A DNA stretch of 64,000 nucleotides from Hydrolagus affinis (taxonomy: Eukaryota): NCBI GenBank assembly GCA_012026655.1, contig JAAILG010001291.1:1-64000 (forward strand), given 5' to 3'. A program made the position numbers and the translations under genes. Shown here piece after piece: positions 40,399-40,772 of the stretch (position 1 is the stretch's first letter; every line of letters starts with the position of its first letter). The notes beneath the pieces were generated by a model. The model was not told the DNA's origin and made no database searches. It saw only the letters and a program-made list of their open reading frames with translations.

Positions 40399-40772
40399 AG
40401 ATCACAGATTGGGGTGGCACCTCTGACCATTACTTTAGTACGAGAAGAGGTCATCGACTTCTCCAAGCCCTTTATGAGCCTGGGTATTTCCATCATGATC
40501 AAGAAGCCACAGAAGTCAAAGCCTGGCGTCTTCTCCTTTCTTGATCCGCTGGCGTACGAGATTTGGATGTGCATCGTTTTCGCCTACATCGGAGTCAGCG
40601 TCGTCCTCTTCCTGGTCAGCAGATTTAGCCCCTACGAGTGGCACACAGAAGAGCCAGAAGACGGTCAGGATTCTCCACCTAGCGACCAACCCCCTAATGA
40701 GTTTGGCATCTTTAACAGTCTGTGGTTTTCTCTGGGTGCCTTTATGCAACAAGGATGCGATATTTCGCCAAG
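40399..40772 (+). CDS. GRIA4: GRIA4 S1-M1-M2 exon (Q/R-site exon), [17 protein letters not shown]...[15 protein letters not shown], 374 nt; Q/R codon CAA at 40747-40749
   Basis: Acceptor tcacag|, donor |gttggt, ends in phase 2; within ORF 40357..40890. Confidence 0.96.

Follow-up and report, generated by a model that had tools for sequence, protein, structure and literature searches.

Predicted GluA2-type Q/R editing duplexes in all four AMPA receptor genes of a cartilaginous fish, with a CAA codon in gria4

The genome of Hydrolagus affinis carries sequences predicted to form a full GluA2-type Q/R duplex in all four of its AMPA receptor genes. This is our main result, and it was not raised in the first-pass annotation of the gria4 DNA, which had drawn attention to the Q/R codon. 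That codon is CAA and leaves a mismatch in the duplex. The mismatch alone is a modest point; the four-gene duplex is the result that counts. By its sequence, the gria4 duplex is homologous to the Q/R substrate of GluA2 and is predicted to work like it, apart from its host gene and the missing CAG.

The gria4 duplex and its host gene

The window, meaning the whole stretch of 64,000 nucleotides analysed (contig JAAILG010001291.1), contains the exons of one AMPA receptor gene from the N-terminal domain through two alternative S2 exons. The gene takes up nearly the whole 70-kb contig. The best PDB match of its M1-M2 exon is GluA4, at 257.9 bits; GluA1 and GluA2 score 239.0 and 238.6. The nearest database proteins are holocephalan (99%), followed by shark GluA4. 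The long C-tail exon of the contig is 94% identical to shark GluA4 and 58% and 35% identical to two paralogues. Exons, loop and long C-tail are thus all of the GluA4 type, as expected for a GRIA4 orthologue, and we assign the host gene of the duplex to GRIA4 of a cartilaginous fish. The first-pass annotation had named the same subunit, and the PDB scores and the C-tail identity bear it out.

Both alternative S2 exons and both the short and the long C-tail exons are present in window positions 63196-63992 together with locus L029 (2168-2819). We take the order of the S2 exons there to be flop first and flip second. The AMPA R/G editing hairpins of gria4 (Table 1) and gria2 (L025, 2087-2157) are both hit by Rfam mir-2985, a family that is likely mis-annotated. 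Rfam scans of the gria1 stretches gave no match to this hairpin.

Table 1. Positions in the window of the gria4 Q/R duplex elements and the R/G hairpin
Feature	Positions	Strand	Remarks
M1-M2 exon of gria4 (exon 11 equivalent)	40399..40772	+	GT donor at 40773; final ~30 nt supply the exon strand of helix I
Q/R codon CAA	40747..40749	+	A40748 recoding position (0); A40749 silent wobble (+1), opposite C41096
Helix II, 5' arm (intronic)	40790..40811	+	two GluA4-specific mismatches relative to the consensus
Helix III, 5' arm (intronic)	40820..40841	+	
Variable spacer	40842..41011	+	unalignable among paralogues apart from a small hairpin, 40966-41006
3' arm of helices III and II	41012..41056	+	contains an A run, 41041-41044
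Helix I, intron strand	41066..41102	+	ends with the ECS core, 41092-41102
Conserved block D	41106..41137	+	repeats the 5' arm directly and is complementary to the 3' arm; in 6/6 carriers
R/G editing hairpin of gria4	60365..60436	+	Rfam mir-2985; R/G identity read from its place at the S2 exon end

The CAA codon lies in frame and encodes the first Gln of the M2 pore motif. Downstream in the intron, the ECS 11-mer is identical to that of mouse Gria2 at 11/11 positions (comparison sequence from PMC7045468, in part). When positions 40720-41160 are folded, A40748 is predicted to pair with U41097 (p 0.88), and A40749, opposite C41096, has no partner above p 0.03. The fold has a stability z of -3.68, with 0/100 shuffles as stable, and its core (40740-41109) reaches z -6.29 compared with -0.87 to +1.19 in all eight control windows from the same intron. 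According to these folding models, the gria4 duplex is well beyond chance. The first-pass annotation had read the codon as CAA, with an A40749:C41096 mismatch beside a paired A40748 and an ECS complementary to CAG. These points are upheld. Five of six duplex carriers pair CAG with the same ECS C.

The gria4 sequence has an imperfect inverted repeat whose helices II and III are conserved and enclose a variable spacer. Two features of a GluA2-type substrate are missing: a CAG codon whose 3' G pairs with the ECS C, and GRIA2 as the host. By analogy with GluA2, the A run in the 3' arm likely corresponds to intronic hotspot 2 (PMC3553965, available sections). Hairpins of differing sequence hold the same spot before the 3' arm in gria4, its paralogues and L034, an outside locus described below.

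The duplex in the four paralogues and its origin

A genome search gave 18 matches, of which four are intact AMPA M1-M2 exons. The paralogues were named by an NTD exon (GluA1), by tail exons and the intron (GluA2) and by the loop (GluA3). The paralogue assigned to GluA3 has slightly better GluA4 scores on two other exons, which resolve no further than GluA3/4; the long-tail exon of the GluA2 paralogue matches only GluA4 entries in the PDB, where no GluA2 long tail was matched. All four genes have an identical ECS 346-410 nt downstream, together with common 5' and 3' arms and block D. The Q/R codon is CAG in gria1, gria2 and gria3 and CAA in gria4 only. The same genome gave 20 matches to ADAR-family deaminase domains, counted here as a family across subtypes.

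Over the first 475 bases of the intron, local alignments score 83-131 between pairs of paralogues, 16-25 in flanking intron and at most 27 in shuffles. Of the 71 pairs in the four-way consensus structure, 44 are invariant; two-sided change occurs at 5 and one-sided change at 15, and pairing fails in one gene or more at 16. All six carriers share an invariant A:C mismatch at +12, where the A follows a G. In gria1 (L002), helix I has another A:C mismatch, at the silent wobble position +7, which comes from a change in the ECS strand.

Elsewhere the paralogues have diverged. In the 5' part of the exon they agree at just 24-41 of 68-69 silent sites, and their spacers are unalignable. With the spacer scrambled and these silent sites diverged, the duplex blocks appear to have been retained by selection. 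Towards the exon end the picture is different: over the last 16 comparable codons, 14-16 of 16 silent sites are identical among GluA2, 3 and 4. The ten codons upstream of the Q/R codon lie outside the predicted duplex, and their silent sites are identical at 7-8 of 8 positions among GluA2/3/4 but at 3 of 8 against GluA1. This may reflect constraint or a short conversion tract.

Outside this genome, we considered the best 80 of 168 relatives, found on metagenome contigs with a protein query. Three were dropped because they had no Q/R column and one because it had no intron, leaving 76 scored loci. Two of these 76, from the best 80 of 168, scored above the background of at most 31, and with the four genes described above they make up the six carriers. 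L034, of GluA2 type, scores 160 against our GluA2 and 88-107 against the other three paralogues. L033, a teleost-type gria3, scores 82 against our GluA3 and 56-69 against the others; it has all blocks, is of CAG type and carries a compensatory change at -5. Among the same best 80 of 168, intron scores were at background for 69 invertebrate-type loci and for five vertebrate-type loci, namely a teleost gria4, a second gria3, a GluA1-type locus, an Arg-coded gria2 and one that is unassigned. We rejected two of these as carriers on their background intron scores: the second teleost-type gria3 (L032), despite a 10/11 ECS-like match, and the GluA1-type locus (L031), whose codon folds with a distant stretch. 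The Arg-coded locus (L035), a GluA2 of teleost type, encodes Arg in the genome and lacks the duplex, the state described for teleost gria2b.

A short-protein search added a bony-fish GluA4 exon whose reading frame runs on into the intron and through the 5' arm; this is so in 3 of the 11 members of its cluster. The frames are those of our own GluA4 and GluA3, and the loop is that of a named non-teleost ray-finned fish. This evidence for bony-fish gria4 spans one reading frame of one arm, with the ECS and the codon outside it. The 5' arm was missing from roughly 26 GluA4 read-throughs of tetrapod type, an eye count made in one frame only. Among the aligned proteins, no vertebrate non-GluA2 sequence has R at the site; Q fills 123/123, 18/18 and 114/120 of the aligned columns, most of them from genome-derived models, which are blind to editing. 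The six R rows of the 120 are three teleost GluA2 and three invertebrate-type proteins.

How the duplex came to be in four genes can be asked of the introns themselves. In the intron tree orthologues group together, though at weak support (47-56). Our GluA2 intron agrees with the outside GluA2 in 162 of 217 columns and with its own paralogues in 150-152, and the outside GluA3 intron is nearest to our GluA3 (151 of 217 columns). Four paralogues with the duplex, and outside loci nearest to their own orthologues, point to an origin before the GRIA1-4 duplications. An alternative is that the duplex spread from gria2 by gene conversion within this lineage, or that the contigs are chimeric. The near-identical silent sites of GluA2, 3 and 4 at the exon end would fit conversion. 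However, recent conversion from gria2 accords poorly with an own GluA2 intron that is closer to the outside GluA2 than to its paralogues, and with an outside GluA3 that sides with our GluA3. The spacers are also unlike in both length and sequence, the duplex is found in a bony-fish gria3 and the 5' arm in a bony-fish gria4, and the R/G hairpin is missing from the GluA1 paralogue, so the AMPA genes have not been generally homogenised. We regard conversion or chimerism as very improbable. The Q/R substrate likely arose once, before the GRIA1-4 duplications, and is not a GluA2 invention. From this single origin, the duplex would have stayed under selection in all four genes of the present lineage, whereas in most bony vertebrates GRIA1, GRIA3 and GRIA4 would each have lost it independently.

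Block D, 3' of the ECS, is conserved in all six carriers (the window at 41106-41137, L002, L003, L004, L033 and L034). Its predicted pairing with the 3' arm amounts to -31.0, -33.6, -39.1 and -36.8 kcal/mol in the four non-GluA2 carriers and is weaker in the two GluA2 genes, at -18.3 and -27.6 kcal/mol. We considered block D as an equilibrium attenuator and rejected the idea, the pairing between the 3' arm and D being 0.00 in 6/6 full-length folds at both 37 and 10 C. This leaves a kinetic or post-editing role; help in unfolding the duplex for splicing is our guess.

Consequences of the CAA codon

CAA is likely the derived state, because five of the six carriers have CAG paired to the ECS C. 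A change from CAG to CAA would have placed an A:C mismatch beside the target and taken away the ADAR2-contacted 3' G. Its predicted cost relative to CAG is 6.7 kcal/mol. GluA4 also has the weakest helix I of the six carriers (-29.8 vs -34.2 to -40.7) and the weakest duplex between the 5' and 3' arms (-38.8 vs -41.1 to -51.7). In the predicted ensemble, pairing of A40748 with the ECS holds with CAA (p 0.97). ADARs prefer a 5' U or A and a 3' G (PMC11276115, in part). The 2-amino group of that 3' G contacts Ser486, and the ADAR2 rate drops by half when inosine takes the position of the G (excerpts of PMC11334849). In mouse, a one-base change in the ECS brought editing down by ~20% in heterozygotes and did not abolish it (PMC7045468, in part).

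Taken together, these features suggest that Q/R editing in this GluA4 is damped, with a possible positive coupling to the wobble position, a reading from sequence that we hold with moderate confidence. Only a minority of transcripts would carry an edited A40748. The silent A40749, with an A as its 5' neighbour and a C opposite, would be the easier ADAR site; once it is edited, the resulting I:C pair would close the helix again and increase Q/R editing, which could nonetheless proceed without it. The outcome would be a small, tunable fraction of calcium-impermeable GluA4(R). Since CGA and CGG both encode Arg, the code forces no order of editing, and the wobble edit is not needed for recoding. 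The first-pass annotation had offered both a damped and a two-step site. The first is favoured by the CAG of five carriers, the energetic cost and the weak helices, and the second is unlikely as a gate but possible as a partial coupling. With shark GRIA2 edited at just 20-33% in brain (PMC8659423, available sections), the weakened GluA4 site may, by analogy, approach zero.

Recoding could also be effectively off in GluA4, the duplex then serving silent or intronic editing together with splicing control of the 17.7-kb intron, or decaying slowly as a relic. The weakness of both helix I and the arm duplex, the additional mismatches in helix II, and the lack of any trace of the duplex in teleost- and amniote-type gria4 among the loci and read-throughs compared would all fit, and the GluA2 duplex is known to govern splicing too (PMC3553965, in part). 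Against it, the ECS core is still identical to that of mouse at all 11 positions, block D is intact beside a scrambled spacer, and A40748 is still paired (p 0.97). We consider loss of recoding rather unlikely. A stricter form of the two-step idea, in which selection favoured the A:C mismatch, editing starts at the wobble A and Arg arises from CAI transcripts alone, possibly through two different ADARs, seems improbable. The favourable 5' A and opposite C of A40749, the retention of C instead of U in the ECS and the separate GluA1 mismatch at silent +7 speak for it. However, inosine, which has no 2-amino group to contact Ser486, supports half the rate (PMC11334849, in part). It would make up for the missing G only in part, so an obligatory gate is unlikely. 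An A:C pair is moreover the simplest transition product of a G:C or A:U pair, so it needs no selection, and the invariant +12 mismatch indicates that a mismatch alone does not make a site.

There is also a small chance that A40749 reflects an error in the assembly or an allele that segregates, with G as the usual base and a plain CAG duplex beneath it. The assembly is a single fragmented one of 245,464 contigs, and the other five carriers have CAG. However, the same GluA4 duplex has further weakening changes, and per-base assembly error is normally low. The four-paralogue duplex would stand whether A40749 is real or an error. For gria4 itself, we retain damped editing as the preferred reading.

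Known Q/R substrates and significance

Reviews describe Q/R editing as specific to GluA2 (PMC3324117 and PMC13520880, in part), and one, in its available text, gives GluA3 and GluA4 no Q/R site (PMC3324117). A comparison of 50 vertebrates, including one cartilaginous fish, covered the GluA2 substrate only, with GluA1, 3 and 4 absent from the available main text (PMC3553965). Our full-text literature search, in which "Q/R" is not searchable verbatim, returned no description of the duplex in gria1, in gria4 or in all four genes, and Rfam has no model covering the Q/R part of the intron. Q/R editing of shark GRIA2 was reportedly treated by Kung et al. in 2001. The values of 33% and 20% come from two shark brains (PMC8659423, in part); section 18 of that source is internally inconsistent on spinal cord. 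In zebrafish, Q-to-R editing of gria3a appears as a targeted site with no note of failure (PMC4670233 S3, in the part available) and as 'edited only in one sample' (PMC8096273, Supp. Table 3, likewise in part). By analogy with zebrafish gria3a, a duplex carrier other than GluA2 can be weakly edited.

The GluA2 duplex shares with that of gria4 an exon 11/intron 11-type ECS, the codon position, the 11-nt ECS and a target A opposite U (PMC3553965, PMC7045468 and PMC3324117, each in part), as well as conserved helices around a variable spacer. The GluA2 substrate is edited by ADAR2, according to excerpts of the same sources, whereas that of gria4 has a GluA4 host, CAA and a +1 A:C mismatch and is known here from sequence alone. 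Where GluA2 was held to be the only host, GluA1 and GluA3 of this genome carry the duplex too. Zebrafish gria3a is likewise a non-GluA2 AMPA subunit, listed as edited both at the M2 Q/R codon and at the nearby silent +4 A; its primer encodes the M2-exon loop, and its editing is low or inconsistent. It differs in being, within the available tables, a row without a described duplex or ancestry. Shark GRIA2 is again a cartilaginous-fish gene with a genomic Gln codon and partial editing, but concerns GRIA2 only (PMC8659423, in part). Like the Q/R duplex, the R/G hairpin of GluA2, 3 and 4 is a pre-duplication ADAR substrate in several paralogues with paralogue-specific tuning (PMC3553983, in part). 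However, it is short, local and on another exon, and here it is absent from GluA1, whereas the Q/R duplex is in all four genes.

These findings have a practical side. Short reads or primers near the Q/R site cannot tell the paralogues apart. Because the exon end is nearly identical among paralogues here, the low editing of shark GRIA2 (20-33%; PMC8659423, in part) could partly come from co-amplified paralogues. The four genes also provide naturally varied versions of a single ADAR2 substrate in a common cell background, from which sequence can be related to editing level, and the CAA variant probes whether a silent neighbouring edit primes a recoding edit.

Why an Arg is obtained by editing instead of being encoded in the genome is regarded as an open evolutionary question (PMC7045468 and PMC3324117, in part). 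Q/R editing has been held to be the defining property of GluA2; a duplex in four genes would make that exclusivity a result of loss. We tentatively propose, at somewhat less than even confidence, that in early jawed vertebrates all four AMPA subunits underwent partial editing at the Q/R site and so shared the control of calcium permeability. Cartilaginous fish may still do so, each gene being tuned by its own mismatches, in GluA4 a self-repairing A:C wobble and in GluA1 a different one, and by a conserved competing block D that is at its weakest in GluA2. The mammalian rule of almost 100% editing in GluA2 only would then be a specialisation produced by later loss.
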